The translations under genes and the position numbers were made by a program. This document shows positions 5,660 to 23,151 of a stretch of 64,000 nt of DNA, piece by piece. The stretch comes from Chloroflexota bacterium (GTDB lineage: Bacteria; Chloroflexota; Limnocylindria; Limnocylindrales; CSP1-4), in assembly GCA_017853275.1 (NCBI GenBank), contig JAFMJV010000003.1, forward strand, positions 64,649-128,648, written 5' to 3'. Position 1 is the first letter of the stretch. Each line of letters begins with the position of its first letter. The notes under the pieces are model-generated. The model was not told the DNA's origin. It ran no database searches and saw only the letters and a list, made by a program, of their open reading frames with translations.

Positions 5660-5693
5660 GTCCTTCCCCCGGCGGCGTGCCCCGCGGCGCGCG

Positions 5694-7247: not shown

Positions 7248-8353
7248 GCGCGCCGGCCACGGATCGCGGGCTCCTCCCCGTCACGCTCCGCGTGGAGCGG
7301 CGGCTGGGGACACCGCGCTGGCTCCCCCTCGCGGCCACGCTTGCGGCGATCGGGGCCGCCCTCGTCCTCTCGGGCCTTCTCCTCGCGCTCATCGGCGCCG
7401 ATCCCTTCGCGGTCTTCGCGCATATCCTCGGCGCGTCCTTCGGCGACCTCTACGTCCTCTCGGACACGCTCGTCAAGGCGACCCCGCTCATCCTCACCGG
7501 CCTCGCCTGCTCGCTCGCCTTCCGGATGCGCCTCTGGAACATCGGTGCGGAAGGCCAGCTCCTCATGGGCGCCTGGGGAGCCTCCGCCGTGGTCCTCCTC
7601 GGGATCTTCCCCGCCGGGACGCCGGGGATCATCCTCATCCCGGCGATGGTCGTGGGAGGGATGGTCGCGGGCGCGCTGTGGGGCGGGATCGCGGGCGTCC
7701 TCCGGGCGCGCCTGAACGTGAACGAGATCATCACCACGCTGATGCTCAACTACGTCGCCCTCTCCTTCCTCCGCTTCTGGGTCTTCGGCCCGTGGAGCGA
7801 GGGTGGCTTCCAGCAGACGGTCCAGTTCCCGCGCGATGCCTGGCTGGGGCGCCTGACGGAGCTCTCGTGGCTCATCCCGGACGTGGCGGGGATGACCGTC
7901 CACGGCGGCTTCCTCCTTGCGCTCGTGGCGGCGGGGATCGTCTGGTGGGTCCTCTCGCGGACGCGGACCGGCTACGAGATCCGGCTCGCCGGGGACAACC
8001 CGCAGGCGGCGCGCTACGCGGGGATCGACCTGAAGCGGAAGATCGTGCTCGTCTTCCTCGCCTCGGGCGCCCTCGCGGGGCTCGCCGGGGCCTCCGAGGT
8101 GAGCGGGACGGTCCACCGGCTCCAGGACAGCCTGGCGCTGGGCTACGGCTTCACCGGGATCGTCATCGCGTATCTCGCCAAGTTCCACCCGCTCGGGGTG
8201 ATCGTGGCGGCGATCGGCTTCGGCGCGCTCATCCTCGCCGGCCGGGAGATCCAGCCCGCGGGGATCCCCGCGATGATCCAGGGGATCGTCCTCGTCTGCG
8301 TGATCGTCGCGGACGCCCTCACCCGCTACACGCTGCGGGTGGTCCGCCGATGA
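7244..8353 (+). CDS. ABC transporter permease (BMP-family system)
   Basis: Polytopic hydrophobic 369-aa ORF with ATGA overlaps to the ATPase gene and the following permease gene. Confidence 0.8.
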   Translation: MSAPATDRGLLPVTLRVERRLGTPRWLPLAATLAAIGAALVLSGLLLALIGADPFAVFAHILGASFGDLYVLSDTLVKATPLILTGLACSLAFRMRLWNIGAEGQLLMGAWGASAVVLLGIFPAGTPGIILIPAMVVGGMVAGALWGGIAGVLRARLNVNEIITTLMLNYVALSFLRFWVFGPWSEGGFQQTVQFPRDAWLGRLTELSWLIPDVAGMTVHGGFLLALVAAGIVWWVLSRTRTGYEIRLAGDNPQAARYAGIDLKRKIVLVFLASGALAGLAGASEVSGTVHRLQDSLALGYGFTGIVIAYLAKFHPLGVIVAAIGFGALILAGREIQPAGIPAMIQGIVLVCVIVADALTRYTLRVVRR

Positions 8354-9318
8354 GCCTCGAGGTCCTCCTCGCCGCAGGCGTGGCGAGCGGTACCGTCCTC
8401 CTCCTCGCCGCGCTCGGCGAGATCCTCACGGAGCGCTCGGGGATCCTCAACCTCGGGGTGGAGGGGATGCTCTTCGTGGGCGCCCTGGCCGGCTTCAAGG
8501 TGGGCCTCGAGACCGGGAACCCGTGGCTCGGGCTCGTGGCGGCGGTCCTCGCGGGGACGGCGCTCGCCCTCCTCCATGCCTTCGTCACCGTCCGGCTGGG
8601 GGCGGACCAGACGGTCTCCGGGCTCGCCCTCACGCTGCTCGGGACCGGGGTCGCGATGGTCCTCGGCGAAGGGCTCGCGGGCGGCGGGACCGGCGCCCTC
8701 CTCCCCACCCTGACGATCCCGCTCCTCTCCGCGATCCCCTTCCTCGGGCCGGTCCTCTTCACGGACCAGTCGATCATGGTCTACGTGGGGCTCCTCCTCG
8801 TGCCGCTCTGCTGGTGGTGGGTGGAGCGGACCCGGCCGGGGCTCCATCTCCGCGCGGTCGGCGAGAACCCCACCGCGGCGGACGCGCTCGGCGTCAACGT
8901 GATCCGGACGCGCGTCATCTACACCGCCCTCGGCGGCGCGCTCGTGGGTCTCGCGGGAGCCACGATCACGATGGCGATCAGCCCCGGCTGGAACGCGAAC
9001 CAGACGACCTCGGGCCAGGGCTGGATCGCGGTCGGGCTCGTGATCTTCGCCCGCTGGAGCCCGTGGCGGGCGCTCCTCGGGGCGTGGCTCATCGCGACGA
9101 TCCGCCGCCTCGCCCTCGACCTCCAGGGCCCGGACGAGATCCTCGGCATCCCGAACGTCTTCCACCTCTACCAGCCGGCGACCTTCTTCCTGGACATGCT
9201 CCCCTACCTCCTCGTCATCCTCGTCGTCGTCCTCGGCTCGCGGGAGGCGATCCGGCGGCGGCTCGGGGCACCCGCGGCGCTCGGCGTGCCGTGGCACCGG
9301 GGGGAGCGGGGGCTCTAG
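8350..9318 (+). CDS. ABC transporter permease (BMP-family system)
   Basis: ATG 8350 (MSLEVLLAAG...) lies in frame within track ORF 7678-9318. The product is polytopic and the gene ends at TAG 9316-9318, inside repeat copy 1. Confidence 0.8.
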   Translation: MSLEVLLAAGVASGTVLLLAALGEILTERSGILNLGVEGMLFVGALAGFKVGLETGNPWLGLVAAVLAGTALALLHAFVTVRLGADQTVSGLALTLLGTGVAMVLGEGLAGGGTGALLPTLTIPLLSAIPFLGPVLFTDQSIMVYVGLLLVPLCWWWVERTRPGLHLRAVGENPTAADALGVNVIRTRVIYTALGGALVGLAGATITMAISPGWNANQTTSGQGWIAVGLVIFARWSPWRALLGAWLIATIRRLALDLQGPDEILGIPNVFHLYQPATFFLDMLPYLLVILVVVLGSREAIRRRLGAPAALGVPWHRGERGL

Positions 9319-9359
9319 GGTCCGGTCAGCCCTCGGTGGATCGGGTGAGCGCGGCCGCG
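9246..9359. repeat. 114-bp direct repeat, copy 1 (left border of the 11-kb insert)
   Basis: Identical by eye, base for base, to 20391-20504. It contains the genuine 3' end of the permease gene plus a relic of the 3' end of the minus-strand protease gene. Confidence 0.9.
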
Positions 9360-9361
9360 GC

Positions 9362-9417
9362 TTGACAACGGCGATCGGGATGCCGCAGTCTCTGTGCCTC
9401 ATGTCGAAAGCGCTTTC
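9362..9417 (+). promoter_or_regulatory. Candidate promoter (TTGACA -35) and LacI-type operator palindrome GAAAGCGCTTTC
   Basis: TTGACA at 9362-9367 follows the repeat end by 2 nt. A perfect 12-bp palindrome at 9406-9417, with the CG-centred AANCGNTT core typical of LacI-family operators, begins 3 nt after the ATG at 9401-9403. Confidence 0.45.
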
Positions 9418-10453
9418 ATCCCGGGCACGACCACCGGCCGAGGACCTTCGCCGCCCCACGATCGATGACGTCGCGCGGCGAGCCGGAGTCTCGATCTCGA
9501 CGGTGAGCCGGGTCATGAACGGGTCGGCCCCGGTCGTCGATGCAAAGGCGGATCGCGTGCGCCGCGCGATGCGCGAGCTCGAGTACCGGCCGGCGACCGC
9601 CGCGCAGGTGCTCGCACGCCGACGCACGAAGACGGTCGGCCTCCTCCTCTCCCGGATCTCCGGTGACTACGTCGCCTCGCTCCTGAGGGGGATCGAGACG
9701 GAGGTCTCCGCCGCCGGCATGAACCTGCTCGTGAGCACAGCGGGGGCGGGGCGCTCGTCGGCGCTCGGCGAGCACAACACGGACGGGCTCCTCGTCTTCG
9801 CAGACGGGATGAGCGACGACGACCTTCGGTTCGCCTGGGCGAGACGGCATCCCGTCGTCCTGCTGCATCGCACGCCGCCCCGGGATCTCGCGATCCCCAG
9901 CGTCACGGTGGAGAACAAGGGGGGTGCCCGCCAGCTGGTCGACCACCTGATCGAGGCGCACGGAGCCCGGTCGATCGCCTACCTCCGCGGCCCTGCGGGG
10001 CATGAGGACTCCCGCTGGCGCGAGCTCGGCTATCGCGATTCGCTCGCTGCCCACGGGATCACCGTCGACCCGGACCTGATCGGGGATGGAGGCTTCACGA
10101 GCTCCGGGGGCGAACGACAGGCCGCCGCCTGGATCGCCGGTGGGCTCGCGTTCGACGCCGTCTTCGCCGGGGACGACGCTGCAGCGGTCGGCGTCCTGCA
10201 GGCGCTCCGGCGTCTGGCGCCGGAGCGGCGAGTCGCGGTCGTCGGCTTCGATGACACACCCCTCGCCCGCCATGTGGCGCCGTCGCTCACGACGGTCCGC
10301 GCGCCGACCGAAGCGGTCGGATCGGCCGCGGTCCGAAGGCTCCTGGAGATGGGGAGCGCGGATCCGGAAGCGCCGCTCCTCACGCTGCTGCCGACACACA
10401 TCGTCCTGCGCCGGTCGTGCGGGTGTCCCGGGGACCGGGAGGAGCAGGGATGA
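9401..10453 (+). CDS. LacI-family transcriptional regulator
   Basis: HTH TIDDVARRAGVSISTVSRVMNG followed by a periplasmic-binding-fold effector domain. Start is uncertain: ATG 9401 is preferred over TTG 9362 from the track. Confidence 0.85.
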   Translation: MSKALSSRARPPAEDLRRPTIDDVARRAGVSISTVSRVMNGSAPVVDAKADRVRRAMRELEYRPATAAQVLARRRTKTVGLLLSRISGDYVASLLRGIETEVSAAGMNLLVSTAGAGRSSALGEHNTDGLLVFADGMSDDDLRFAWARRHPVVLLHRTPPRDLAIPSVTVENKGGARQLVDHLIEAHGARSIAYLRGPAGHEDSRWRELGYRDSLAAHGITVDPDLIGDGGFTSSGGERQAAAWIAGGLAFDAVFAGDDAAAVGVLQALRRLAPERRVAVVGFDDTPLARHVAPSLTTVRAPTEAVGSAAVRRLLEMGSADPEAPLLTLLPTHIVLRRSCGCPGDREEQG

Positions 10454-11748
10454 TCAAGGTCGCGGTGATCGGCGGCGGATCGACCTACACGCCCGAGCTC
10501 ATCCAGGGGTTCCTCGCCCGTCGGGGACGGCTCCCGGTCGGAGAGGTCTGGCTCGTGGATCCCGACCCGGACCGCCTCGCGGTGGTGGGGGGGCTGACGG
10601 CCCGGATGGTGGCGGCGGCCGGCGGCCCGTTCCGCGTGGTCCTCACCGGCGATCGCCGTGCGGCGATCTCGGGTGCGGACTACGTGGTGACGCAGCTTCG
10701 GGTGGGCCGGATGGCGGCTCGCGAGGGAGACGAGCAGCTCGGGCGGCGCCACGGCCTGGTCGGCCAGGAGACGACCGGTGTGGGTGGGTTCGCGAAGGCG
10801 CTGCGCACGGTCCCGGTCATCCTCGAGATCGCTGCGGAGATCGCCGCGGAGGCACCGGCGGCACTCCTGGTGAACTTCACGAACCCCGCCGGCCTCGTCA
10901 CCGAGGCCCTCTTCCGCCACGCGCCACAGGTCCGGGCGGTCGGCGTCTGCAACGGACCGCCCCATCTGCAGATGGAGATCCTCGCTGCTCTCGCGGACGG
11001 AGGGCCGGCGATCGACCCGGAGCGCAGCGCCCTCGAGACCCTCGGCCTGAACCACCTCGGGTGGTACCGCGGCTTCCGCCTTGACGGGCGGGACCTGTGG
11101 CCGGAGGTGATGGACCGCTGGATCCGGCGGATGCGTGAGACCCCCGATCCTGCGTGGGACCCGGACCTGCTCGCCGCGCTGGGCATGATCCCGAACTCCT
11201 ATCTCCGCTACTTCTATGACACCGCGCGGGTCGTGGACGAGCAGGCCGGATCGCCGACACGCGCGAGCACGGTGATGGCGATCGAAGCGGAGCTTCTCCG
11301 TGATTACGCCGACCCGGACCGCGTGGCGCCGCCGGCCACACTGATGCAGCGGGGGGGCGCCTACTACTCCACGGTCGCCACGCAGCTGATCGACGCCCAT
11401 CACAACGGACGCGGAACCACGCACATCGTCAACGTCCGTCACGCGGGCGCCGTCCCCGGATGGGACCCGTCATGGGTCCTCGAGCTCCCCGCTCGCGTAG
11501 ACCGGGACGGGATCCACCCGATCCCGACCGAGCCGCTGCCGGCGGTCGTCGCGGGGCTCCTCCATCACGTGAAGGCCTACGAGCTGCTCGCCGTGGAAGC
11601 GGCCGTCCACGGAGACCCTCGGGTGGCCCTCCAGGCGCTCATCGCGCACCCGCTCGGGCCCTCGATGCGCCGAGCCGAGGCCCTGCTCGAGGACCTTCTG
11701 CAGACGAACGCCACCTACCTGCCGCGCTTCCGGACGCCGGCGCCATGA
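10450..11748 (+). CDS. GH4 family 6-phospho-beta-glucosidase (ChbF/CelF-like, NAD/Mn dependent)
   Basis: MIKVAVIGGGSTYTPELIQGF...VVTQLRVG...GQETTGVGGFAKALRTVPV...NFTNPAG...GVCN closely parallels E. coli ChbF as I recall it. Confidence 0.85.
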   Translation: MIKVAVIGGGSTYTPELIQGFLARRGRLPVGEVWLVDPDPDRLAVVGGLTARMVAAAGGPFRVVLTGDRRAAISGADYVVTQLRVGRMAAREGDEQLGRRHGLVGQETTGVGGFAKALRTVPVILEIAAEIAAEAPAALLVNFTNPAGLVTEALFRHAPQVRAVGVCNGPPHLQMEILAALADGGPAIDPERSALETLGLNHLGWYRGFRLDGRDLWPEVMDRWIRRMRETPDPAWDPDLLAALGMIPNSYLRYFYDTARVVDEQAGSPTRASTVMAIEAELLRDYADPDRVAPPATLMQRGGAYYSTVATQLIDAHHNGRGTTHIVNVRHAGAVPGWDPSWVLELPARVDRDGIHPIPTEPLPAVVAGLLHHVKAYELLAVEAAVHGDPRVALQALIAHPLGPSMRRAEALLEDLLQTNATYLPRFRTPAP

Positions 11749-12767
11749 GGATCTTCCTGGGTGGCGACCTCGGCGGGACCAAGTCCCATCTCCTGCTCGC
11801 GGACGAGGCGGGACGCGTCCTCGGCTTCGCGGCAGGGGGCGGGGCGAACCACGAGGCGGTGGGATACGGCGCGGTCACGGAGGTGGTCCGGTCGCTCTTC
11901 CGGGAGGTCCTCGCATCGGCGGGCATCGGCGCCACCCGGGTCACCGCCGCGGGCTTCGGCATCGCCGGTCTCGACTGGGGATCGGAGGAGCCGGCCCAGC
12001 TGGCAGCCCTCCGGGCGGCGGGGGTCGATGGCTTCCCGGTCACGGTCGTGAACGACGCGGTGGTCGGCCTCCTCGCGGGGGCGACGGAAGGGTGGGGGAT
12101 CGGCCTCGTCTCGGGGACCGGGTGCAACTGCTGGGGCCTCGATCGCGATGGTCGACTCGGACGGGTCCTGGGCATGGGTGCGCGGGTCGGGGAGTTCGCG
12201 GGGGCCTCCGCGCTCGTGACGCGGGCCGTCTGGGCGATCTCGCGAGCGGCCACGCGACGCGGGCCCGAGACCGCCCTCACGGATGCCTTCCTCACCGCCT
12301 TTCGGGCCGCTGATGCGCTCGCCTTTCTCGAGGGCTACTGCGAGGAGCGCTATCCGGTGGATGCCTCCCTCGCCCCGCTGGTCTTCTCCGTCGCCGAAGC
12401 CGGCGACCGGGTGGCGACGGAGTGCATCGCGTGGGCAGGGCGCGAGCTGGCCGACCTCGTCACGGGTGTCGCCCGGCAGCTCGACCTGACCGGCTCGTCC
12501 TTCGAGCTCGTCCTGATCGGGAGCCTCTTCCGGGGCGGACCCCTCCTCCTCGACCCACTCCTCGCCGCGGTCCGTGCGGAAGCCCCGGGCGCGCGGACAG
12601 TCACCCTCTCCGGTCCCCCGGTCATCGGCGGCGTGGTCCTCGCCATGCGCCGCGCGGGGATCGATCGACGCGATATCGACCGGCAGCGGCTTGCCGGGTC
12701 GATCCAGACGGACCGGTCGCCGGTGCTCGCCCCGCGACCCCATGAGCTCGAGGAGGTCTACTCATGA
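11745..12767 (+). CDS. BadF/BadG/BcrA/BcrD-type ATPase, N-acetylglucosamine-kinase-like sugar kinase
   Basis: MRIFLGGDLGGTKSHLLLADEAG...GGGANHEAVGY and GLVSGTGCNCWG are ASKHA-fold phosphate motifs. ATGA overlap at 11745. Confidence 0.7.
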   Translation: MRIFLGGDLGGTKSHLLLADEAGRVLGFAAGGGANHEAVGYGAVTEVVRSLFREVLASAGIGATRVTAAGFGIAGLDWGSEEPAQLAALRAAGVDGFPVTVVNDAVVGLLAGATEGWGIGLVSGTGCNCWGLDRDGRLGRVLGMGARVGEFAGASALVTRAVWAISRAATRRGPETALTDAFLTAFRAADALAFLEGYCEERYPVDASLAPLVFSVAEAGDRVATECIAWAGRELADLVTGVARQLDLTGSSFELVLIGSLFRGGPLLLDPLLAAVRAEAPGARTVTLSGPPVIGGVVLAMRRAGIDRRDIDRQRLAGSIQTDRSPVLAPRPHELEEVYS

Positions 12768-14041
12768 CGACGCTCGGCGATCCCGTGGGGACGAGCACGC
12801 TCCCTGCGATCCTCGGCGGACCGCGCGCGCGGCAGGACGACTACCCCGTCTGGCCCGAGCATGACGAGCGCGACGTTGAGGCAGTGGCGCGCGTCGTCCG
12901 CTCCGGGCGCTGGGGTGGCTTCCCGTTCCCCGGACCCGAGACGGCTCGCTTCGCGGAGCGGTTCGCTGCGCTCCAGGGGGGCGGGACCGCCGTCCCGATG
13001 GTCAACGGCACGATCACGATGGAGGTCGCGATGCGCGCGGCCGGCATCGGCTGGGGTGACGAGGTGATCGTCCCCGCCTACACCTTCCAGGCAACGGCGG
13101 CGGCTCCGATGGCGGCAGGGGCGCTGCCGGTCATCGTGGACATCGACCCCGAGACCTACTGCATCGACCCCGCAGCGGTGGAGGCGGCGATCACGCCCCG
13201 CACGCGCGCGATCATCCCCGTCCACCTGGGCGCCCAGATGGCGGACATGGACGCGATCATGCGCATCGCCGAGGCCCACGACCTGATCGTCGTGGAGGAC
13301 TGCGCGCATGTGCCCGGCGCTGCCTGGCAGGGACGCGGTGCCGGGACGATCGGCCACTTCGGCTCCTTCAGCCTCCAGTCATCGAAGACGCTCACCTCGG
13401 GCGAGGGCGGCGTCCTCCTCTGCCGCACCCCCGAGCTCGCCCGCCGTGCGAGCTCGATCATCGACTGCGGGCGACCCAAGGACCCCGCCGGGATCGAGTA
13501 CACGCAGGGTTCGAACTACCGGATGACGGAGCTGCAGGCCGCCCTCGCCAATGTCGGCCTGGACCGCCTCCCCGGGCAGATCGCCGAGCGCGCGGAGAGC
13601 CGCGCCTACGCGGACCGGGTCCTCGGCTCCGTCCCCGGGGTCCGGATCCTGCCCGCCGACCCCCGCATGACGATCCCTGCCTTCTACCGCTACGTCTTCG
13701 CCGTGGACCCGGACCGCTTCGGCCTCGATCACCTTCAGGTCACCCGGGCGCTCGCGGCCGAGGGGGTCCCGTCCTGGATCGGGTACGAGGCGATGCATCG
13801 GTACACGCTCTTCCAGCCGCAGACGACGCGCCTGCCGGTCCCGACCGCCTTCCCCGAGTACTTCCGGTTCGAGACGATGTCCTTCCCGGAAGCGGAGCGG
13901 GCCGCCGAGCGTGAGGCTGTCTGGCTCGATGAGCGGATCTTCCGCGCGGGGACGGACGGGGTGGACGCGGTGGTCGATGCGCTCCGGAAGATCCAGGCGC
14001 ACGCGCCCGCCATCGCCGGCCACCTGGGAGGAGCCGCCTGA
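12764..14041 (+). CDS. DegT/DnrJ/EryC1/StrS-family PLP-dependent sugar aminotransferase
   Basis: Family blocks NGTITMEVAMRAAGIGWGDEVIVPAYTF, IIPVHLGAQ and SFSLQSSKTLTSGEGG, the last containing the putative PLP lysine. Confidence 0.85.
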   Translation: MTTLGDPVGTSTLPAILGGPRARQDDYPVWPEHDERDVEAVARVVRSGRWGGFPFPGPETARFAERFAALQGGGTAVPMVNGTITMEVAMRAAGIGWGDEVIVPAYTFQATAAAPMAAGALPVIVDIDPETYCIDPAAVEAAITPRTRAIIPVHLGAQMADMDAIMRIAEAHDLIVVEDCAHVPGAAWQGRGAGTIGHFGSFSLQSSKTLTSGEGGVLLCRTPELARRASSIIDCGRPKDPAGIEYTQGSNYRMTELQAALANVGLDRLPGQIAERAESRAYADRVLGSVPGVRILPADPRMTIPAFYRYVFAVDPDRFGLDHLQVTRALAAEGVPSWIGYEAMHRYTLFQPQTTRLPVPTAFPEYFRFETMSFPEAERAAEREAVWLDERIFRAGTDGVDAVVDALRKIQAHAPAIAGHLGGAA

Positions 14042-14042
14042 G

Positions 14043-14840
14043 ATGACCGCGGGTGAGCTCGCGGGAGAGGTCGCCGTCGTGACCGGGGCCGCGCAGGGGA
14101 TCGGGGAGGCGATCGCGCGGCGGCTGGCCGCGGCCGGGGCGCGCGTCGCGCTGGCAGACCTCCAGGCGGAGAAGGCGGAGGGGGTCGCGGCTTCGATCCG
14201 CGCGGCAGGCGGCGAGGCGCTCGCCTTCCCCGTGGATATCGCCGATGGAGCCTCCCTCGACCGGCTCCGGTCACAGGTCCGGTCGGCCTTCGGCCCGGTC
14301 ACGATCCTCGTGGCGAACGCGGCCCGGATCACGATCCGGCCCTTCCTCGAGCTCACGGACGCGGAGTGGGAGGCGACGGTCGCGACGAACGTGACGGGGA
14401 CCTACCTCACGATCCGCCGTTTCTGCGATGAGATGATCGACGCACATCGCGGCAGCATCATCGTCATCTCGTCGGTGAACGGCCTGCGGGGACAGGTCGG
14501 GCTCTCGGCGTACAACGTCACAAAGGCTGCCCTCGTGATGCTCGCCCGGACGGTCGCCCTGGAGCTGGCCGGTCATGGGATCCGCGTGAATGCGATCGCT
14601 CCCGGGGACATCGCCACGGCCATCGTCGACCAGGTCGCGGACCAGGACGGAGCCCAGGGGACGATCCCGCTCCGGCGCTATGGCCGTCCCGAGGAGGTCG
14701 CCGAGACAGCCCTCTTCCTCGCCTCGGCACGCGCTGCATACACGACCGGCTCCGTCGTGACCGTCGATGGCGGTCTGGACGCACAGCTCTATCCGGGCGA
14801 CATCTTCGCCTCGGGAGAGGCTCCGGGGGCGAACGGATGA
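14043..14840 (+). CDS. Short-chain dehydrogenase/reductase (SDR)
   Basis: TGAAQGIGEAIA Rossmann motif together with SSVNG, a YNVTK catalytic Y/K and PGDIAT. Start ATG 14043 comes 2 nt after the preceding stop. Confidence 0.85.
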   Translation: MTAGELAGEVAVVTGAAQGIGEAIARRLAAAGARVALADLQAEKAEGVAASIRAAGGEALAFPVDIADGASLDRLRSQVRSAFGPVTILVANAARITIRPFLELTDAEWEATVATNVTGTYLTIRRFCDEMIDAHRGSIIVISSVNGLRGQVGLSAYNVTKAALVMLARTVALELAGHGIRVNAIAPGDIATAIVDQVADQDGAQGTIPLRRYGRPEEVAETALFLASARAAYTTGSVVTVDGGLDAQLYPGDIFASGEAPGANG

Positions 14841-16102
14841 CCGACGGGCTCACCGCGTCGCTGGAGGCCAGCATCAGGGAGATCCCGGTGGTGGACTGCC
14901 ACGAGCACACCTTCCTGCCGGACCGGCGGCCCGCGCGGGTGGATCTCGGGACGCTCGTAGCCGGCTCCGACCTCGCGGACGACCTGATCTCCGCCGGGAT
15001 GCCCGCCGAGGCCCGTGCCCGTCTCGGGTATGCCGACGCCGCGCCCTTCCTCGGCCACGTGCGGAACACGGGCTTCAGCCGCAGCCTGATGGCGGCCTTC
15101 GCGGAGCTCTTCGACTTCCGCGAGGAGACGATCTCGGCGACGGACTGGGAAGCGCTCTCGGAGCTCCTGGCAACGGCGAACACGCGACCCGGCTGGTACG
15201 ACGACGTCCTCGGGCGCGGCCGGGTGACGACCATCCTCCGGATCCAGGGCGATGAGCCGGACCCGCTCGCAGTGCCACGGCGCTGGTTCCGGCCGATCCT
15301 GCGGATCGACCCGTGGATCGTGGAGGCGGGGAGCACGACGGAGCGGGAGCGGATCGCCGAGCGCGCCGGGGGGCGTGGAACGACCCTCGCGGGCTACCTC
15401 GAGGCGCTCGACGGGTGGTTCTCGGCAGCGGCCGCGGGCGGAGCGGTCGGGATCAAGTCGATGCTCGCCTATCGTCGGCCGCTGACCCACGGGCGACCCA
15501 CGGCCGAGGAGGCCGAGCGCCTCTTCCAGGCGAAGCACCGCTCGGCAGCCGAGGAGCGTGCCCTCGAGGACGCGATCGTCCACGCCGTGGCGGAGCGTGC
15601 CGGCAGAGCCGGCCTCCCGTGGCAGATCCACGTGGGGATCGGGTCATGGCAGACGAACATCGTCGGCAACGGCGATCCCGTCATGCTCGATCCCCTCGTG
15701 TCCGCCCACCGGGGGACCACCTTCGTCCTCCTCCATGGGGGCTACCCCTACCTCGGACAGATCGGCTCCATGGCGAAGAACCACCCGAACGTGGTCATCG
15801 AGTGCGGCTGGCTCGCGTATATCGCGCCGGCCGCCTACCGGCGAGCCCTCGCCGAGTGGCTGGACTCGGTCCCTGTCTCCAAGATCCTCGCGGTGGGCGC
15901 CGACTGCGCGCACGTGGAGCAGACGCTCGGGGCGCTGCTCCTGACGCGACACGACCTGGCGCGCGTGCTTGCGGAGAAGATCCGCCACGACGGCTGGTCG
16001 GAGAAGGAGGCCATATCGTCGGCCCACGCCCTGCTGGGCGGGAACGCCGGCTCGGTCTACCGCCTGGACGGCGCCGGGGGAGGGGGTGGCACGCGGGCCT
16101 GA
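14837..16102 (+). CDS. Amidohydrolase-superfamily metal-dependent hydrolase (PF04909-like)
   Basis: N-terminal VVDCHEHTF metal motif, LLHGGYPY and a C-terminal LLGGNAGSVYRL are typical of TIM-barrel amidohydrolase_2 proteins. Substrate is unknown. Confidence 0.6.
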   Translation: MTDGLTASLEASIREIPVVDCHEHTFLPDRRPARVDLGTLVAGSDLADDLISAGMPAEARARLGYADAAPFLGHVRNTGFSRSLMAAFAELFDFREETISATDWEALSELLATANTRPGWYDDVLGRGRVTTILRIQGDEPDPLAVPRRWFRPILRIDPWIVEAGSTTERERIAERAGGRGTTLAGYLEALDGWFSAAAAGGAVGIKSMLAYRRPLTHGRPTAEEAERLFQAKHRSAAEERALEDAIVHAVAERAGRAGLPWQIHVGIGSWQTNIVGNGDPVMLDPLVSAHRGTTFVLLHGGYPYLGQIGSMAKNHPNVVIECGWLAYIAPAAYRRALAEWLDSVPVSKILAVGADCAHVEQTLGALLLTRHDLARVLAEKIRHDGWSEKEAISSAHALLGGNAGSVYRLDGAGGGGGTRA

Positions 16103-16136
16103 CATCCACTTTCCCTATCCGGACCTTCACCGACCG

Positions 16137-17468
16137 ATGAGAACCGTGGGAGGAACCATGCGTCGCCGAACCCTTCGGCTCCTGATCGCCGGGCTGATCC
16201 CGGCCACGATCGCGCTCGGCGCGGTCACCGGGCCGGTCGCGGCCCAGGATCCCCAGACGATCCGCATGTGGACGTGGAGCCAGTGGAACGGGGTCACGGG
16301 CCTCGAGCCCGACGGCCAGCCGCTCGACTGGTGGCGTGCCGCCGTGGATGCGTGGGCAGCCGAGCACCCCGGCGTCACCGTCGAGATCGAGGATCTCAAC
16401 GGCCAGGACCTGGACATCAATGCGAAGTACGACACCGCCGTGGCGGCCGGGAATATCGCCGACCTCATCTGGGTGGACGAGTCGTACTTCTCCAAGTACG
16501 CGTCTGCGGACGTGCTCGCCCCGATCGACGCCTACCTGACCGAGGAGGACCGCGCGGACTTCCTCGCCAAGAACCTGGAGCTGAGCGCCGCCGACGGCAA
16601 GCAGTGGTTCTGGCCCTACATCACCCAGGGGAACCACCTGGCGATCAACGTCGATCTCTTCCGCGCCGCAGGAGCGGAGGACCTGCTTCCCAAGGCGCCG
16701 GACTACACCTGGACGTGGGATGAGTTCGTGGCAGCGGCCAAGGCCGTCACGTCGCCCGAAGCGTTCGGTGTCGGGTTCAGCACGGATGGTGCCTACACGA
16801 TGGCCGAGGCGTGGGGGGACCACCTCTACGCCCAGGGCGACGAAAGCAAGGTCACGATCAACACCCAGAACACGGTCGATGCCTTCGAAGCCCTGATCGG
16901 GCTCACGAAGGACGGGACCGCCTTCCCGGGCTCCGGCACCGGTGCGGTGGACCTCGCGACAAACTTCCTCCAGGGCCGGATCGCCATGATCAACTCGTGG
17001 GGGATCATCAACGACATCGAGAAGCTCCCGGAGGGGGAGCGGTTCGACGCGATGCTCGTCCCCTTCCCGAGCGGGCCGAACGGCGAGCCGCTCGTCTGGG
17101 GTGGCGTCCATGGCCTGGCCGTCACGAAGCAGCCGAGCGCGGAGCGTGAGGCCCTCGTCATGGACCTTGCGCACTACCTCACCAGCTTCGAGGCGCTCAA
17201 GGACGTGCGCGCGTGGAGCAAGCCGGCCCGGCACTCGATCATCGCAGCCCAGGAAGCGGACGAGTCCTACCTCTTCCGCGACTTCCTGCCGATGTTCGAG
17301 GCGTACACGAACGTCGCGATCCCGCTCATGGGCCAGGGGCCGAACGCGGTCCCGGTCCTGATCAAGTACGAGCCCCTCGTCGAGGCGATGTTCACCGGGG
17401 ACCTGCCCCCCGCTGAAGCGCTCGCGCTCTTCGAGGCGGACGCGAACATGATCCTCGGAGCGCCCTGA
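16137..17468 (+). CDS. ABC transporter extracellular solute-binding protein (family 1, carbohydrate type)
   Basis: Signal-like RRRTLRLLIAGLIPATIALGAVTGPVAAQ followed by a family-1 SBP-like body. Start is ATG 16137 (or 16158) inside track ORF 15969-17468. Confidence 0.8.
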   Translation: MRTVGGTMRRRTLRLLIAGLIPATIALGAVTGPVAAQDPQTIRMWTWSQWNGVTGLEPDGQPLDWWRAAVDAWAAEHPGVTVEIEDLNGQDLDINAKYDTAVAAGNIADLIWVDESYFSKYASADVLAPIDAYLTEEDRADFLAKNLELSAADGKQWFWPYITQGNHLAINVDLFRAAGAEDLLPKAPDYTWTWDEFVAAAKAVTSPEAFGVGFSTDGAYTMAEAWGDHLYAQGDESKVTINTQNTVDAFEALIGLTKDGTAFPGSGTGAVDLATNFLQGRIAMINSWGIINDIEKLPEGERFDAMLVPFPSGPNGEPLVWGGVHGLAVTKQPSAEREALVMDLAHYLTSFEALKDVRAWSKPARHSIIAAQEADESYLFRDFLPMFEAYTNVAIPLMGQGPNAVPVLIKYEPLVEAMFTGDLPPAEALALFEADANMILGAP

Positions 17469-17482
17469 TCCACGGCTTCCAC

Positions 17483-17512
17483 CCCCGGGGCGGCCATCCG
17501 GCCGTCCCGGGG
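17483..17512 (+). terminator. 13-bp stem-loop (one G-U pair) between the SBP and permease genes
   Basis: ccccggggcggcc (17483-17495), atcc loop, ggccgtcccgggg (17500-17512). Intercistronic position matches mRNA-stability hairpins that follow SBP genes. Confidence 0.45.
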
Positions 17513-17538
17513 GGCGACCCATTCCCATCGAGGCATCG

Positions 17539-18489
17539 ATGACGGAGACGAACACAGCGACCGGAGACCGCACCCTGGGCCGACGGATCTGGCGCGCCCG
17601 GTGGGCCTATCTCTTCGTGCTCGTCCCCGCGGTCCTCTTCCTCGTCTTCGAGCTTTACCCCTTCATCCGGGCCACGGGCTACAGCGTCTCGTCGTGGACG
17701 ATCCGCGGCCCGGGTGAGTTCGTGGGCCTGGAGAACTACGCGGCGATCTTCCGGGACCGGATCTTCTGGAAGGCGCTCATGAACACGATCGCGTACGCGG
17801 TGATCGTGGTGGGGGGCAGCGTGGGTCTCTCGCTCGTCCTCTCCGCCGCGATGTACCCGCTGGCGACGCGCGCGAAGTCCTTTTTCAAGATGGCCTTCTA
17901 CCTGCCGGCGGTCGCTTCGATCGTCGTGGTCGCGCTGGTCTGGCGCTGGATGTACCAGCCTGCCTTCGGCCTCTTCAACCACCTCGCGGCGATCATCGGG
18001 ATCGGTCCGTTCGGCTTCCTCACGGACACCTCGCAGTCGCTCGCCTCGATCATGCTCATGCAGATCTTCTCCAACCCCACGATCGGGATCGGCGCCTCGG
18101 TCATCCTCGTGCTCGCGGCGATGAACAGCATCCCGACCCACCTCTACGAGGCGGCGATGCTGGACGGGGCGGGGACCGTCGCGCGCTTCCGGCGCATCAC
18201 CGTCCCCCTTCTCCGGCCGACCGTCGTCTTCCTCGTGATCATCGGGACGGTGGAGGCATTCCGGGAGTTCACGGCGATCTACCTGATGACCAGCTCCTCG
18301 TCGGGCCAGGCGCTGTCGGGGGGCGGGCCCTTCTACTCGACGACGACGCTCGCCTACTACACCTACGTCCAGGCCTTCCTCGCCCGGCAGGTCGGCGTGG
18401 CATCGGCGGCAGCGATGGTCCTCCTCGCGATCGTCTTCGTCGTGGCGGTCATCCAGTTCCGCCGGTTCAACACCGAGATCGAGTACTAG
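17539..18489 (+). CDS. Carbohydrate ABC transporter permease (MalF/UgpA-like)
   Basis: Six predicted TM segments and an EAA-loop-like YEAAMLDGAGTVARFRRITVPLLRP. Confidence 0.85.
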   Translation: MTETNTATGDRTLGRRIWRARWAYLFVLVPAVLFLVFELYPFIRATGYSVSSWTIRGPGEFVGLENYAAIFRDRIFWKALMNTIAYAVIVVGGSVGLSLVLSAAMYPLATRAKSFFKMAFYLPAVASIVVVALVWRWMYQPAFGLFNHLAAIIGIGPFGFLTDTSQSLASIMLMQIFSNPTIGIGASVILVLAAMNSIPTHLYEAAMLDGAGTVARFRRITVPLLRPTVVFLVIIGTVEAFREFTAIYLMTSSSSGQALSGGGPFYSTTTLAYYTYVQAFLARQVGVASAAAMVLLAIVFVVAVIQFRRFNTEIEY

Positions 18490-18498
18490 GGGAGAACG

Positions 18499-19389
18499 AT
18501 GGCGACCTTCGATCGGACGCGGCCATCCGCGCAGGCGGATCTGCCCGGGGGAGGACGCGGGCGGCTTCGCCCCGATTCGTTGCCGCGGATCCTGGCCTAC
18601 GTGATCGTGGGATCGATGGCGATCGCCTCGCTCATGCCCCTTTACTGGATGTTCACGACATCCCTGAAGGACCAGGCGGCCTACATGGCACAGCCGCCGG
18701 AGATGCTCCCCGGCGATCCGACCCTCGCGAACTTCGGGCAGCTCTTCGCGAACCCGAACATGCTCCGGTGGATCTTCAACAGCGCGTTCGTCGCCCTCTC
18801 GGTGACCGGCCTCAACCTGGTCTTCGCGACCCTGGCCGGGTATGCCTTCGCGAAGATGTCCTTTCCGGGGCGGCGCTGGATGTTCTGGATCTACCTCGCG
18901 ACGATGATGGTCCCCTTCCAGGTCACGATCTTCGCCCTCTTCCAGCTGATGGTCACGATCGGCTGGGTGAATACCTACTGGGCGCTGATCATCCCGGCGA
19001 TGGCCCTTCCCTACAACGTCTTCCTGATGCGCCAGTTCATGCATACGCTGCCCAACGAGATCCTGGACGCCGGGCGGATCGACGGTTGCTCAGAGATCCA
19101 GCTGGTTCGCAGGGTCGTCGTACCCATGAGCACGAATGGTCTTGCCGTCGTGGGGATCTTCACCTTCATCACCACCTGGAACAACTTCCTGTGGCCGCTG
19201 GTGATCCTGAACACGGAGGAGATGCGGACCCTTCCGATCGCGCTCTCGACCTTCCAGAGCACGAACGAGACGGACTACGGCCTGCTCATGGCCGGGGGTG
19301 TCCTGATGGCGATCCCGATGTTCATGATCTTCTTCGCGTTCCAGCGGTACTTCCTCCAGGGAGTCACCTTCGGTGGCCTGAAGGGGTAG
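18499..19389 (+). CDS. Carbohydrate ABC transporter permease (MalG/UgpE-like)
   Basis: Polytopic product with the EAA-loop-like motif LDAGRIDGCSEIQLVRRVVVPMS. Confidence 0.85.
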   Translation: MATFDRTRPSAQADLPGGGRGRLRPDSLPRILAYVIVGSMAIASLMPLYWMFTTSLKDQAAYMAQPPEMLPGDPTLANFGQLFANPNMLRWIFNSAFVALSVTGLNLVFATLAGYAFAKMSFPGRRWMFWIYLATMMVPFQVTIFALFQLMVTIGWVNTYWALIIPAMALPYNVFLMRQFMHTLPNEILDAGRIDGCSEIQLVRRVVVPMSTNGLAVVGIFTFITTWNNFLWPLVILNTEEMRTLPIALSTFQSTNETDYGLLMAGGVLMAIPMFMIFFAFQRYFLQGVTFGGLKG

Positions 19390-19393
19390 GAGG

Positions 19394-20386
19394 ATGACGA
19401 TGCGCCTCGGCTTCTCGGGAACGGGTTACATCGCGAAGATCCATGCGGACGCGGCGCAGGCGATCGGCGCCCGGGTCGCGTCCGTCGCGAACCACCGCCC
19501 GGAGTCCCGGGCGGCGTTCGCCGAACGCTTCGCGGTCGACCGGACCTTCGAGAACGTCCCCGATCTCCTCGCGGCCGGTGGCATCGACGGCCTCGTCGTG
19601 TGCACGCCGAACGCGCTCCACGCACCCGATACGCTGGCCGCGCTCGCGGCCGGGATCCCCGTCCTCGTCGAGAAACCGATGGCGCGGACCGCCGTCGAGG
19701 CGCAGACGATGCACGATGCGTCCGTCGCGTCCGTCGTGCCCCTCATGGTCGCCCACTGCTGGCGGTTCGACGCCGAGGCCCTCTGGCTGCGCGACGAGGT
19801 CCGCGCCGGCCGGCTGGGAAGGATCATCCGGACGAAGGGCTACGGGGTCCATGTCGACTGGGGCCCGAAGGGCTGGTTCACCCAGTCCGCCCTGGCGGGT
19901 GGCGGAGCGCTCGCAGACATGGGGATCCACGCGCTGGACACGGTCCGCTTCCTGCTCGGTGACCCGCTGCCGGAGCGCGTCTACGCGGCGGTGGGGACCT
20001 ACTACCGCGAGATCGACGTGGACGATACCGGGGTGATCGTCGTGACGTGGCAGGGCGGGATCACCTCGGTGATCGAATCGGGCTGGTTCCAGCCCCAGGC
20101 TGACGGCCCGGAAGCGGCGACCCAGCTTTACGGGACCGAGGGCTATGGACGCCTCTACCCCACCTCCCGCAAGGCATCGGGAGGGGAGCTCGTCGACCCG
20201 GGCTTCGTCTTCCCGCGGAAGCCGCACTGCCTCCCGGAGATGTACCAGGCGCAGATGCGCGCCTTCCTCGAGGTGATCCGCACCGGCCGCGTGGAGGAAG
20301 GGCGGTCGGACGTGAGCCTGGTGAACGCGCGGATCGTGGATGCGACCTACACGAGCTCGCAGAGAGGCGAGGTGGTCCACCTCTGA
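19394..20386 (+). CDS. Gfo/Idh/MocA-family NAD(P)-dependent oxidoreductase
   Basis: N-terminal Rossmann segment MRLGFSGTGYIAKIHA and the VLVEKPMART (EKP) motif. GGTAGGAGG RBS precedes the start; the stop at 20384-20386 lies 4 nt before repeat copy 2. Confidence 0.85.
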   Translation: MTMRLGFSGTGYIAKIHADAAQAIGARVASVANHRPESRAAFAERFAVDRTFENVPDLLAAGGIDGLVVCTPNALHAPDTLAALAAGIPVLVEKPMARTAVEAQTMHDASVASVVPLMVAHCWRFDAEALWLRDEVRAGRLGRIIRTKGYGVHVDWGPKGWFTQSALAGGGALADMGIHALDTVRFLLGDPLPERVYAAVGTYYREIDVDDTGVIVVTWQGGITSVIESGWFQPQADGPEAATQLYGTEGYGRLYPTSRKASGGELVDPGFVFPRKPHCLPEMYQAQMRAFLEVIRTGRVEEGRSDVSLVNARIVDATYTSSQRGEVVHL

Positions 20387-20390
20387 TCCG

Positions 20391-20504
20391 GGCGATCCGG
20401 CGGCGGCTCGGGGCACCCGCGGCGCTCGGCGTGCCGTGGCACCGGGGGGAGCGGGGGCTCTAGGGTCCGGTCAGCCCTCGGTGGATCGGGTGAGCGCGGC
20501 CGCG
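20391..20504. repeat. 114-bp direct repeat, copy 2 (right border of the 11-kb insert)
   Basis: Identical to 9246-9359. It holds a relic of the permease 3' end (including TAG 20461-20463) and the genuine 3' end of the protease gene (stop 20471-20473). Confidence 0.9.
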
Positions 20505-20953
20505 ATCGCCGCGGCGGCATCCCGCAGGGCGCCCTCCACCTCGGGGGAGAGCGGGTCCCCCATCCCGAAGGAGCGCCCGCCGATCCCCACGAAGCTCCCG
20601 GCCGGGACGCGCCCGCCGATGAGCGCCGCGAGGGCGATCGTCTCCTCCAGGGGAAGCTCGTGGGAGGAGCGCGGCCTGGGCCCGGGGCCTGCGGCACGTG
20701 CCGTCCCCATCCCCGCCAGCTCCGCGAGCGGCCGGATCCAGAGCGTCCCCGGCGGGATCCCCGCCACCGCGTCCACGATCACCGTCTCCGCCTCGGCAGG
20801 GAGGTCGAGGAGGAGCTGGACGTCCAGGCTCCCGGCGGGGATCACGCGGACGCCCGCGAGGAGCGCCGGGTCGAGGAGGTCGGCAGCCCGGAAGGCGGCG
20901 TCATCGTCCCCGCGGGCCGGCTCGCCGCACAGGACGAGCGTGCGCTCGGCCAC
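20471..20953 (-). CDS. [NiFe]-hydrogenase maturation endopeptidase (HoxW/HycI-like)
   Basis: 160-aa ORF reading LVLCGEPARGDDDAAF...VIVDAV, typical of hydrogenase maturation proteases. It lies 4 nt downstream of the large-subunit gene. Confidence 0.75.
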   Translation of the reverse strand: MAERTLVLCGEPARGDDDAAFRAADLLDPALLAGVRVIPAGSLDVQLLLDLPAEAETVIVDAVAGIPPGTLWIRPLAELAGMGTARAAGPGPRPRSSHELPLEETIALAALIGGRVPAGSFVGIGGRSFGMGDPLSPEVEGALRDAAAAIAAALTRSTEG

Positions 20954-20956
20954 CGC

Positions 20957-22288
20957 TCAGGCGCGGTCGATCGTGAGATCGAGGAAGTGGGTCGCGCAGC
21001 TGATGCAGGGGTCGTAGGAGCGGATCATCTGCTCCAGGCGGTGGGTCGCCTCGGCATGGGGGAGCGCCAGGACCTCGCGCGCGGCGACCACGAGATCGGC
21101 CTCGATCGCCGCCTGGTTCTGGCTCGTGGGCGGGACGATCTGCGCCTCCCGGATCCGGCCCCGATCGTCCACCACGTAGCGGTGGAAGAGGAGGCCGCGC
21201 GGGGCTTCCGTGGCCCACGCGGCGACCCCGGCGCGCGGCTCCCAGGCGGCGAGCGGGACGGAGGGCGGCACGTAGGCATCGATGAGGTCGAGCGCCTCCG
21301 CGTAGGCGTGGATGAGCTCCACCCCGCGGGCCACGATCGAGGCGTAGATGTTCGTCCGGATGAGCTCCGCGAAGCCGCTCTGGTCGAGCGCCTCGCGGGC
21401 GAGCGGGTGGAGCGTCCCGCCGGTGAGGGTGACGCGGGCTGCGGGGCCGAGGAGATAGGCGCCCTTCCCGTCCAGGGTCCGGGCATGGAGCGCGTTGCTC
21501 CCCTCCACCTGGTGCTCCTCGAAGATCGAGCGCCAGTCCGCCATCGGGATGTCGATCCCGTCCGAGCTCACGATCCGGCCGTGGTTGAAGGGGTACTCGT
21601 CCGGGTGGCGGAGGGAGACGAGGCGAGGCTCGCGCGCGAAGGCGGGCATCGGGAGGCTCGCCACGAAGCGGGTCGTCTCCTGCGCGATCGCGAGCCCGTC
21701 GGCGAGCGCGGGCCGGAGGGCGAGGAGCTCGGAGCGGCGCGGGGCGCGGCTCCAGCCGCCCACGCGGACGGAGACCGGGTGGATCGGCCGGCCGCCGAGG
21801 AGGCGGAGGAGGTCGTTCCCGGCCTTCTTCGCGCGGAGCGCCGCCTCCACCCGCTCCCGGTGGTCCGCGGCCATCGCGATCGCGGAGGGATAGCCGAGGA
21901 AGTCCGGCGCGTGGAGGAGCCAGATATGGAGGGCGTGGCTCTCGATCCACTCGCCGCAGTAGAGGAGCCGCCGGAGGGCGCGCACGGAGGGATCGATCGC
22001 GACGCCGAAGAGGTCCTCGAAGGCGTGGACCGCGCTCATCTGGTACGCCACGGGGCAGATCCCGCAGATGCGCGCGACGATGTCGATCACCTCGTCCGGC
22101 GTCCGATCCACCACGAGCGCCTCGAAGTAGCGCGGCGCCTCGAAGATCCCGAGGCGCGCCTCCACGATCTCGCCGCCGCGGACGACGAGGTGGAGCGAGC
22201 CCTCCCCCTCGACGCGGGTCAGCTCACCGACGGCATAGGTGCGGTCCTCGGGGACGGGGGCCGGGGTGGGGGTGGGACGCTCGGTCAT
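20957..22288 (-). CDS. hyhL: [NiFe]-hydrogenase large (alpha) subunit, group 3b-like
   Basis: N-terminal RICGICPVAY and C-terminal DPCISCATH Ni-Fe ligand motifs. The product is 443 aa from ATG 22288 (MTERPT...), and ATGA overlaps the small-subunit stop. Confidence 0.85.
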   Translation of the reverse strand: MTERPTPTPAPVPEDRTYAVGELTRVEGEGSLHLVVRGGEIVEARLGIFEAPRYFEALVVDRTPDEVIDIVARICGICPVAYQMSAVHAFEDLFGVAIDPSVRALRRLLYCGEWIESHALHIWLLHAPDFLGYPSAIAMAADHRERVEAALRAKKAGNDLLRLLGGRPIHPVSVRVGGWSRAPRRSELLALRPALADGLAIAQETTRFVASLPMPAFAREPRLVSLRHPDEYPFNHGRIVSSDGIDIPMADWRSIFEEHQVEGSNALHARTLDGKGAYLLGPAARVTLTGGTLHPLAREALDQSGFAELIRTNIYASIVARGVELIHAYAEALDLIDAYVPPSVPLAAWEPRAGVAAWATEAPRGLLFHRYVVDDRGRIREAQIVPPTSQNQAAIEADLVVAAREVLALPHAEATHRLEQMIRSYDPCISCATHFLDLTIDRA

Positions 22289-23151
22289 CGCGCTCCCTCC
22301 TGGGCCGCGCGGCGGGCGGCCTCCGGTGCCATGGGAAGCGAGCGGCGGCTCCCCTCCGGCGCTCCGCCCGTGGCGTCGATCGCGCTGCGGAAGGGCTGCG
22401 CCCAGGCCGTGAAGCCGGCGAGGAGCCGGCCCGCCTCCGCGGGGTCGTGGCCGAGATCGGCGGTGAGATGGCGGAGGAGGCCGTCCACGTTCGCGCCCTC
22501 GCGCGGCCCGAAGCAGCCGTAGCAGCCGCGCCCGTAGCGGGGGCAGATCGCGCCGCATCCACCCTGGGTCACCTGGCCGAGGCAGGGGACACCCTTCGCG
22601 ACCGCCACGCAGACCGCGCCGCGCCGCTTGCACTCCTGGCAGACCGATTCATCGCGCAGCTGCGGCCGGCGGCCGGTGGCGAGCGCGGCGAGAAGCTCCA
22701 GGAGCTGGTCCGGGTCGATCGGGCAGCCGCGCAGCTCGGCATCCACGGGGACGAGATCGGCGACGGGGAGGGAGCGGTCGAGCGAGGCGACCCATTCCGG
22801 CCGGGCGTAGACCGCGTCCCGGAAGGCCGCGTGGTCGCCCCAGTTCCGGAGCGCCTGGATCCCGCCCGCGGTGGCGCAGGCGCCGATCGTCACGAGGTAC
22901 CGCGTCCGGGCGCGCAGCTCCACGATCCGCTCCGCCTGGTGCGGGTCGGAGATCGAGCCCTCGATGAAGAGGACGTCGAAGGGGCCGGCGGAGCGCGCCG
23001 AGGAGGCCTCCGGGAAGTCGAGGATCTCGAAGCGCTCCGTGACGTCCAGGAGGCGCTCCTCGAGGTCGAGGATCGTGAGCTGGCAGCCATCGCAGGAGGC
23101 CATCTTCACGACCCCCACGCGGGGCCGGGCGGGCGCGGCGGAGGAAGCCAT
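22285..23151 (-). CDS. hyhS: [NiFe]-hydrogenase small (delta) subunit, group 3b-like
   Basis: VVKMASCDGCQ...IGACATAGGI plus C-terminal Cys clusters (CQECKRRGAVC, GGCGAICP, CYGCFGP) fit an NuoB-fold FeS subunit. Start is ATG 23151. Confidence 0.85.
   Translation of the reverse strand: MASSAAPARPRVGVVKMASCDGCQLTILDLEERLLDVTERFEILDFPEASSARSAGPFDVLFIEGSISDPHQAERIVELRARTRYLVTIGACATAGGIQALRNWGDHAAFRDAVYARPEWVASLDRSLPVADLVPVDAELRGCPIDPDQLLELLAALATGRRPQLRDESVCQECKRRGAVCVAVAKGVPCLGQVTQGGCGAICPRYGRGCYGCFGPREGANVDGLLRHLTADLGHDPAEAGRLLAGFTAWAQPFRSAIDATGGAPEGSRRSLPMAPEAARRAAQEGAR

Follow-up and report, generated by a model that had tools for sequence, protein, structure and literature searches.

The ssrA-specific islands of Dehalococcoides, a member of the Chloroflexota, reportedly carry an integrase and leave a second copy of the 3' end of the gene that they enter. 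Tandem duplications with additional DNA inserted at the joint, formed by template switching (fork stalling and template switching, FoSTeS, or microhomology-mediated break-induced replication, MMBIR) or by end joining, are known mostly from eukaryotes and from amplification studies in E. coli; templated insertions in these systems usually measure tens to hundreds of base pairs, and junction microhomology is the hallmark of such processes. The cis-mobilizable elements (CIMEs) of streptococci are decayed integrative and conjugative or integrative and mobilizable elements (ICEs and IMEs) that have kept attL and attR and lost the integrase (reviewed in PMC5704250), and the microcin H47 island of E. 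coli is a 13-kb element with long direct repeats and no recombinase that is excised as a circle independently of RecA (Azpiroz and Lavina; PMC5426353). Here we describe a locus that resembles each of these in part. It lies in a 64,000-nt stretch of the genome of an uncultured Chloroflexota bacterium (GCA_017853275.1, contig JAFMJV010000003.1, positions 64,649-128,648 of the forward strand), hereafter the window, in which a perfect 114-bp direct repeat, composed of the 3' ends of two genes that converge, brackets an 11,031-bp carbohydrate operon.

The H47 island is the nearest documented system to this locus, and a duplication with DNA at its joint is the nearest by topology. Like the H47 island, the insert is small (11 kb vs. 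13 kb), holds one functional gene set and no recombinase, and lies between long direct repeats of which a single one remains in the empty site. However, the repeats of H47 are imperfect, with four blocks of homology, and its circle was shown by PCR (PMC5426353), whereas none was found here in assembled contigs. The present repeat is also an exact copy of two host gene ends, which marks it clearly as a duplication of the target and not as an attachment (att) sequence borne by the element. Integrase-borne islands are similar in that the gene they interrupt regains its 3' end from the direct repeats and that strains differ in their presence or absence; those islands, however, carry an integrase and target a tRNA or tmRNA gene, whereas here there is neither and the repeat restores two genes. 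With FoSTeS, MMBIR and end joining the locus shares a short direct duplication whose joint is exactly where the additional DNA lies, and an independence from any enzyme of the element, although the insertion here is a whole 11-kb operon. CIMEs are likewise flanked by attL and attR and lack integration and transfer genes of their own, but each occupies an att site for which the integrase family is known (PMC5704250), whereas this insert is a clean operon, free of decayed mobility genes, for which no cognate integrase is known. The locus resembles the integrase-less islands (H47-type or CIME) in having long flanking direct repeats without an element recombinase; it is unusual in that the repeat consists of two convergent gene ends around a bare operon and that both alleles coexist, and it is not a new class of system.

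Positions 9246-9359 (copy 1) and 20391-20504 (copy 2) are identical, base for base, at 114 of 114 nt. The limits of the repeat are exact, since the adjoining base on the left is A at copy 1 and G at copy 2, and the bases on the right read GCTT and ATCG, respectively. As the remaining repeat families of the window are at most 87 nt long and only 60-84% identical, a chance origin of the match is excluded. The repeat unit, hereafter X, comprises 73 nt of the 3' end of a permease gene, a 7-nt spacer and 34 nt of the 3' end of the gene for a HycI-type hydrogenase maturation protease. In copy 1, the permease end is the working one (9246-9318, including the TAG stop at 9316-9318 of an open reading frame (ORF) with the Pfam domain BPD_transp_2), and it is followed by the spacer (9319-9325) and a 34-nt HycI relic (9326-9359, in minus-strand sense). 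In copy 2, a 73-nt permease relic (20391-20463) and the 7-nt spacer precede the working HycI 3' end (20471-20504). An earlier, sequence-only reading of the window had described both the perfect repeat and this composition, and the differing neighbouring bases and the ORF limits agree with it. That reading had, however, counted 11 genes between the copies. The 11,031 bp in question (9360-20390) contain 10, co-directional and mostly overlapping, a number on which the public gene calls for the ERZ27275072, ERZ27275061, JGI and Logan contigs agree. The insert begins 2 nt upstream of a TTGACA element and ends 4 nt past its last stop codon. Its non-coding DNA comes to 45 nt, of which 41 nt precede the first gene and 4 nt follow the last. 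With its left edge at the promoter and its right edge at the last stop, the insert is one complete transcription unit and nothing more.

The occupied arrangement was recovered from several assemblies. In addition to the window, which is taken from a 141-kb contig of a metagenome-assembled genome (MAG) at NCBI, it is present in the 79.7-kb MEGAHIT contig k141_602254 of ENA assembly ERZ27275072, whose alignment with the window shows 99.8% identity and is ungapped across ~30 kb, including both junctions. Left and right junction contigs are present in JGI metagenome 3300025872 (L093 and L007) and in Logan run SRR5602543 (L094 and L004), the latter pair both stopping 30 nt into the repeat, i.e., k-1 for k = 31. 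The inferred k-mer sizes of these assemblies were 141, 127 and 31. A 141-mer that spans the repeat necessarily reaches into the flanks, and since both 141 and 127 exceed 114, k-mers that cross the junctions must occur in the reads. Furthermore, in ERZ27275072 and JGI 3300025872 the HycI relic of copy 1 is altered at three positions (9337 T>C, 9340 A>T and 9341 T>G), and none of these substitutions is present in copy 2, which is invariant across all assemblies that cover it. Two copies that differ at three positions in two assemblies must be two separate loci. These results, together with the passage of the k = 141 assembly through both copies, confirm that the two-copy structure is real, and they dispose of the assembly artefact that the sequence-only reading had offered as one explanation of the perfect identity. 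Two insert contigs produced by different assemblers, L005 (MEGAHIT; end = 20396) and L006 (JGI 3300006875; end = 20395), stop 6 and 5 nt into copy 2, respectively; the graph may have been pruned at these points or could branch there to a second context of the operon. A search for other contigs bearing the exact protein of the last insert gene returned only contigs that were already known.

Direct repeats of this kind had been taken in the sequence-only reading as the footprint of an insertion, with the prediction that related genomes would show an empty site in which the permease stop, 7 nt and the HycI stop adjoin around a single X. Such sites were found in close relatives, and the footprint was thereby upheld. 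ENA ERZ27275061 contig k141_644037 (L001, 16.6 kb) matches positions 1-9359 of the window at 99.56% and positions 20391-24720 at 99.28%, and the two matches overlap by exactly 114 nt to give permease, one X and HycI. The same empty arrangement occurs in contig L002 of JGI 3300025872, the sample that also yielded occupied junctions, and the 11,031-bp insert is missing to the base from both contigs. In that sample, the permease contig L002 and contig L007, which carries the last insert gene, end on a common 127-mer (X plus 13 nt of HycI), and the hydrogenase contig L090 begins exactly at X. This shared end and the start of L090 are the graph signature of both alleles in one sample. Empty sites are thus present in co-occurring strains at 99.3-99.8% identity, and the empty arrangement is also found at ~94-95% nucleotide identity (L101, L102 and L104; NCBI GCA_032110765.1 and three Logan runs). 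In the closest genome at the species level (GCA_046352645.1, contig L010), the permease gene again faces HycI, across a spacer of ~55 nt. Since near strains, relatives at ~95% and a sister species all have empty sites, the empty state is ancestral, with the permease and maturation protease genes facing each other across 6-7 nt, and the insert was therefore gained inside a clade whose members share at least 99% identity. In a natural population of an uncultured freshwater member of the Chloroflexota (Candidatus Limnocylindrales-like), the island is thus polymorphic for presence and absence. The wider spacer of the sister species contains a tandem (GGGCGGCGC)n at L010 10970-11020, compared with a spacer of 7 nt in the species of the window.

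Beyond these relatives, the operon to which the permease gene belongs, a basic membrane protein (BMP)-type transporter operon, is kept in 80 Chloroflexota genomes, all relatives at the species level. None of these 80 has a gene-end duplication or an island bounded by this permease end, and in 79 of them, all but the closest species with its empty arrangement, the 10 kb downstream of the BMP operon contain neither HycI nor the insert. Unrelated to the present finding, a Caldilineaceae contig (L028) has, at 16864-20933 and downstream of its BMP operon, ~556-nt repeats that are 91% identical and a 112-nt repeat that is 99% identical.

The sequence-only reading had also taken the 100% identity of the copies as a sign of a recent event, and here the data lead elsewhere. 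Among the assemblies, the insert differs at 0.11-0.28% of positions and the flanks at 0.2-0.7%, i.e., the insert is as polymorphic as its surroundings, and at 0.11-0.28% divergence two stretches of 114 nt can be expected to match perfectly in most cases. The diverged left copy, in turn, looks older than the perfect one. The variant copy 1 keeps the HycI reading frame, with one synonymous and two conservative changes (TRSTEG to TRTAEG), and two of its three variant states match both outgroups at 95%; it therefore looks like the fossil of an older allele. On the simplest reading of these sequences, which falls short of proof, the variant copy 1 would preserve the HycI allele that was present at insertion, and the perfect copies of the window would reflect later homogenization, with one copy converting the other or the island being excised and entering again. 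The last six to seven residues of HycI (20471-20504; proteins P0076-P0082) are hypervariable among strains that are more than 90% identical, with TRSTEG, RRPAEG and ERPVGG at this position and TRTAEG in copy 1. Empty and occupied alleles occur on mixed flanking haplotypes; at 8164-9245, for example, the empty contig L002 is nearer to the window than is the occupied ERZ27275072 contig. Such mixing fits a freely recombining population.

Searches for the machinery of mobility gave no candidate in cis. No recombinase domain was detected in the 10 insert genes (Pfam, NCBIfam and PHROGs), in the insert's 10 longest alternative-frame ORFs (Pfam, both strands) or in the large ORFs that were scanned outside the insert; genes for an integrase or a transposase and phage-like genes are absent from the insert, and the 64-kb window contains no tRNA or tmRNA gene. 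Terminal inverted or direct repeats of the insert did not exceed chance, the best end-to-end alignment being an insignificant, gapped match of 32 columns. The lack of an integrase, transposase, tRNA and inverted terminal repeats noted from the sequence was thus reproduced by domain and repeat scans. No circle or tandem junction (end of the last insert gene, 112-116 nt, start of the LacI gene) was matched in the assembled JGI metagenome contigs, which are a poor detector of rare circles, and an exact search of these contigs for the core of X returned only the empty-site and hydrogenase-side contigs of JGI 3300025872, with no new cargo. The insert had no megablast match among PLSDB plasmids, and a 22-nt stretch at its right end had no exact match in IMG/VR. 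Nothing above chance was found in the way of structure within X.

Several origins were rejected on this basis. An integrative element with its own recombinase would account for the repeats and the one-copy empty site, but there is no encoded recombinase and no tRNA, tmRNA or recurrent att target. A transposon or insertion sequence, including a composite one, is incompatible with the lack of a transposase and of terminal inverted repeats and with a duplication of 114 bp instead of the expected 2-15 bp. A CIME should retain decayed ICE or IME remnants, whereas this insert is filled by its 10 operon genes. Microhomology at the junctions (GGCGAT and GATCCGG) was also dropped, since both motifs are common in this genome, at 1.4-3 occurrences per kb.

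We consider it probable, though well short of certain, that the locus arose by a one-off illegitimate duplication-with-insertion that was selected and then kept polymorphic by homologous recombination of the host. A single illegitimate event would have duplicated 114 bp of the target, as a tandem duplication with 11 kb captured at its joint, either through two replication template switches or through the joining, with an incoming fragment in between, of two sister chromosomes whose breaks lay 114 bp apart. The event would have passed selection since, with the duplicated segment, each of the two convergent genes regains its 3' end; indeed, the 7-nt gap leaves almost no room for a clean insertion, so that only an insertion that regenerates 3' ends keeps both genes whole. 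No element-encoded enzyme would take part. The occupied allele would then have spread between strains by double crossover in the flanking core genes, and the 114-bp copies are of sufficient length for recombination by the host, which could delete the island precisely, with an empty site and an 11,145-bp circle as products, and could homogenize the copies; this would account for their perfect identity in the window.

Several points weigh against this scenario. The founding duplication was not observed, and no donor sequence is close enough to reveal junction microhomology (the nearest homologues have 65-88% protein identity). The trimming of the insert, 2 nt from the promoter and 4 nt past the stop, is tighter than two random breakpoints usually give and hints at a specific process or at strong selection; it is the main fact that a one-off model explains by selection only. 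Excision and conversion are deduced only from the two forms of copy 1, with no circle or tandem junction in the JGI contigs. Finally, a recombinase encoded outside the 64-kb window may have acted in trans.

Campbell-type integration, as the sequence-only reading had suggested, overlaps in part with the duplication-with-insertion just outlined. Here, a circle bearing X would enter empty sites by single crossover through host homologous recombination, and the perfect repeats of the window would mark a recent re-entry. The expected product, X-insert-X as opposed to a single X in the empty site, is what the assemblies contain; 114 bp suffices for RecA-type recombination, and the existence of copy 1 in two versions is compatible with crossovers to one side or the other of positions 92-96 of X. 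However, a circle with X can arise only from a chromosome that is already occupied, so that Campbell integration cannot have been the founding event and the first duplication is left unexplained. The search that failed to match a circle junction in JGI contigs also counts against it, as does the lack of an evident route between cells for a non-replicating 11-kb circle, and double crossover in the flanks explains the spread equally well. We rate such cycling as a rather unlikely explanation of the locus.

Mobilization in trans appears to us unlikely to a greater degree. The repeats would then be the attL and attR of a site-specific recombinase whose gene lies elsewhere in the genome or on a helper element, and the operon a cis-mobilizable or H47-type island that is excised and integrated as an 11,145-bp circle. 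This would agree with the exact direct repeats and exact empty site, with the tight trimming of the element from promoter to stop codon, and with the presence of both states in one sample and on mixed haplotypes, and the H47 island (PMC5426353) and CIMEs (PMC5704250) provide precedents. Against it are the absence of a recombinase among the ORFs scanned in the window, the absence of a circle junction in the JGI contigs, an insert with no decayed remnants of an integrative element and just 45 nt of non-coding DNA, and the result that 0 of 80 related genomes have a gene-end duplication by this permease. The target, moreover, is neither a tRNA gene nor another usual att site. We know of no att site that is built from the 3' ends of two different genes.

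A more speculative account, to which we give about as little credence, is that the gene-end repeats are working att sites of a recombinase-free operon cassette that leaves and re-enters by host functions alone, as in H47, or that a process not yet described makes target duplications of ~100 bp, perhaps triggered where the head-on BMP operon and the converging hydrogenase operon meet, ~26 kb from dnaA. Scarcely credible, lastly, is an artefact in which an empty-site chromosome and a separate operon molecule were joined via their common 114 bp, or in which the assembler made the repeat: the perfect copies of the window, the mixed populations of the samples and the breaks of L005 and L006 at 5-6 nt into copy 2 could be cited for it, but the same junctions come from independent assemblies made with different software, MEGAHIT with k = 141 spans both copies in the one 79.7-kb contig, two assemblies have three mismatches between copy 1 and copy 2, and 114 matches neither k nor k-1 for any of the three k-mer sizes.

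The locus provides a natural example of a self-regulated catabolic operon that was added to a compact genome with no mobile-element gene and with no harm to two abutting genes, and its two alleles are found side by side in the same water samples. It is a useful population-genomic marker, since the abundance of the alleles, the frequency of excision and the conversion of copies can be measured in existing public read sets. If excision circles are found, the poorly understood class of islands that lack a recombinase, which until now has meant essentially the H47 island of E. coli, would extend to an abundant uncultured freshwater phylum. If there are none, the locus would be a well-documented scar of one illegitimate recombination and otherwise ordinary strain-level variation in gene content.

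Pfam and NCBIfam searches indicate that the insert (9360-20390, plus strand) is a complete LacI-regulated operon for carbohydrate uptake and catabolism, with all 10 genes on the plus strand. The first gene encodes a LacI-family repressor (9401-10453; Pfam LacI helix-turn-helix, 3.3e-17; Peripla_BP_3, 7e-30) and is followed by genes for an NAD-dependent family 4 glycoside hydrolase (10450-11748; Glyco_hydro_4, 7.5e-52; Glyco_hydro_4C, 1e-46), a BadF/BadG/BcrA/BcrD-type ATPase resembling N-acetylglucosamine kinase (11745-12767; PF01869, 2.5e-18; the NCBIfam NagK match is weak), a DegT/DnrJ/EryC1-type sugar aminotransferase (12764-14041; Pfam, 3.6e-83), a short-chain dehydrogenase/reductase (14043-14840; adh_short_C2, 2.5e-59) and a metal-dependent hydrolase of the Amidohydro_2 family (14837-16102; Pfam, 5.6e-11). 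A sugar ABC transporter comes next, with a solute-binding protein (16158-17468; SBP_bac_1) and two permeases (17539-18489 and 18499-19389; BPD_transp_1). No ATPase gene lies beside these three genes (16158-19389), and the transporter would have to use a shared, MsiK-type ATPase encoded elsewhere. The last gene encodes a Gfo/Idh/MocA oxidoreductase (19400-20386; Pfam), whose TGA stop lies 4 nt before copy 2.

The LacI ORF is open from 9362, and its start is probably the ATG at 9401. Public gene calls place the start at 9515 (312 aa; L003 1017-1955), which loses the helix-turn-helix encoded upstream. A candidate promoter-operator region (9362-9417, plus strand) begins with TTGACA (9362-9367) and ends with a perfect palindrome, GAAAGCGCTTTC (9406-9417), and both are kept at similar spacing upstream of the orthologous LacI gene at a sister species locus (L096). 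From motif and conservation we infer that GAAAGCGCTTTC is a LacI-family operator and TTGACA a -35-like element, although a scan of the region with the sigma-70 consensus gave no full promoter match. Since the ATG at 9401 overlaps the conserved palindrome, the LacI transcript may be leaderless or short-leadered.

The sister MAG (GCA_046352645.1) also has this operon, with its genes arranged alike, on a different contig (L096), where it lies behind unrelated genes that are present neither in the window nor at any retrieved locus. Proteins of the insert are 65-86% identical to those of the sister operon, compared with 68-83% for core genes of the two organisms, and syntenic versions occur on other Chloroflexota metagenome contigs; the operon type is native to this bacterial group. 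Outside the population cluster, the nearest homologues of the Amidohydro_2 protein are 65-69% identical and those of the solute-binding protein 86-88%. As no intermediate homologues of these two proteins were found, the operon is apparently absent from the ~95% relatives sampled for HycI. A comparison of composition between insert and flanks, proposed with the original observation, gave a mixed result. The GC content of the insert is 70.1% vs. 73-75% in the flanks, its GC content at third codon positions (GC3) is also lower, and no other 11-kb segment of the window departs as far in its use of tetranucleotides; yet the tetranucleotide correlation is still r = 0.976, and the sister operon has the same GC3 offset from its own core genes, which makes composition weak evidence for a foreign origin. 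We read these similarities as suggesting that the donor of the operon was a relative within this group whose lineage is as yet unsampled, although a vertically inherited copy may instead have been transposed.

On the left, the insert is flanked by the operon for a BMP/PnrA-type ABC transporter (4304-9318, plus strand; Pfam), consisting of a binding protein, an ATPase and two permeases, the last gene of which ends inside copy 1. The right flank (20471-25130, minus strand; Pfam) encodes the HycI-type maturation protease (20471-20953), the large and small subunits of a [NiFe]-hydrogenase and an Fe-S/NAD-binding subunit. Public gene calls on L001 and L003 match this assignment, and the 3' end of HycI lies inside copy 2. 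The hydrogenase cluster (20957-25606, minus strand) is of the cytosolic type, with large, small and 659-aa Fe-S/NAD-binding subunits, and is preceded by a gene resembling a cyclic nucleotide monophosphate (cNMP)-binding regulator. Downstream of the hydrogenase and cNMP-binding protein genes, at 25700-31360 (minus strand), is a PMT-family ORF of ~1,750-1,890 aa (protein O-mannosyltransferase-like; PMT, PMT_2 and PMT_4TMC).

The window also contains the neighbourhood of the replication origin (38334-50749), with recF (38334-39512), dnaN (39487-40752) and dnaA (45742-47340) on the minus strand, and yidC (47988-49685) and a jag/khpB-like gene (49310-50749) on the plus strand. The insertion site is ~26 kb from dnaA (~36 kb counting the insert), and the BMP operon and the insert, both on the plus strand, would be head-on to a fork moving leftwards from the origin. 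Within the Jag-like ORF, a degenerate tandem repeat at 49900-50181, with 21- and 30-nt spacing and eight overlapping copies that are 62-83% identical, probably encodes a low-complexity linker.

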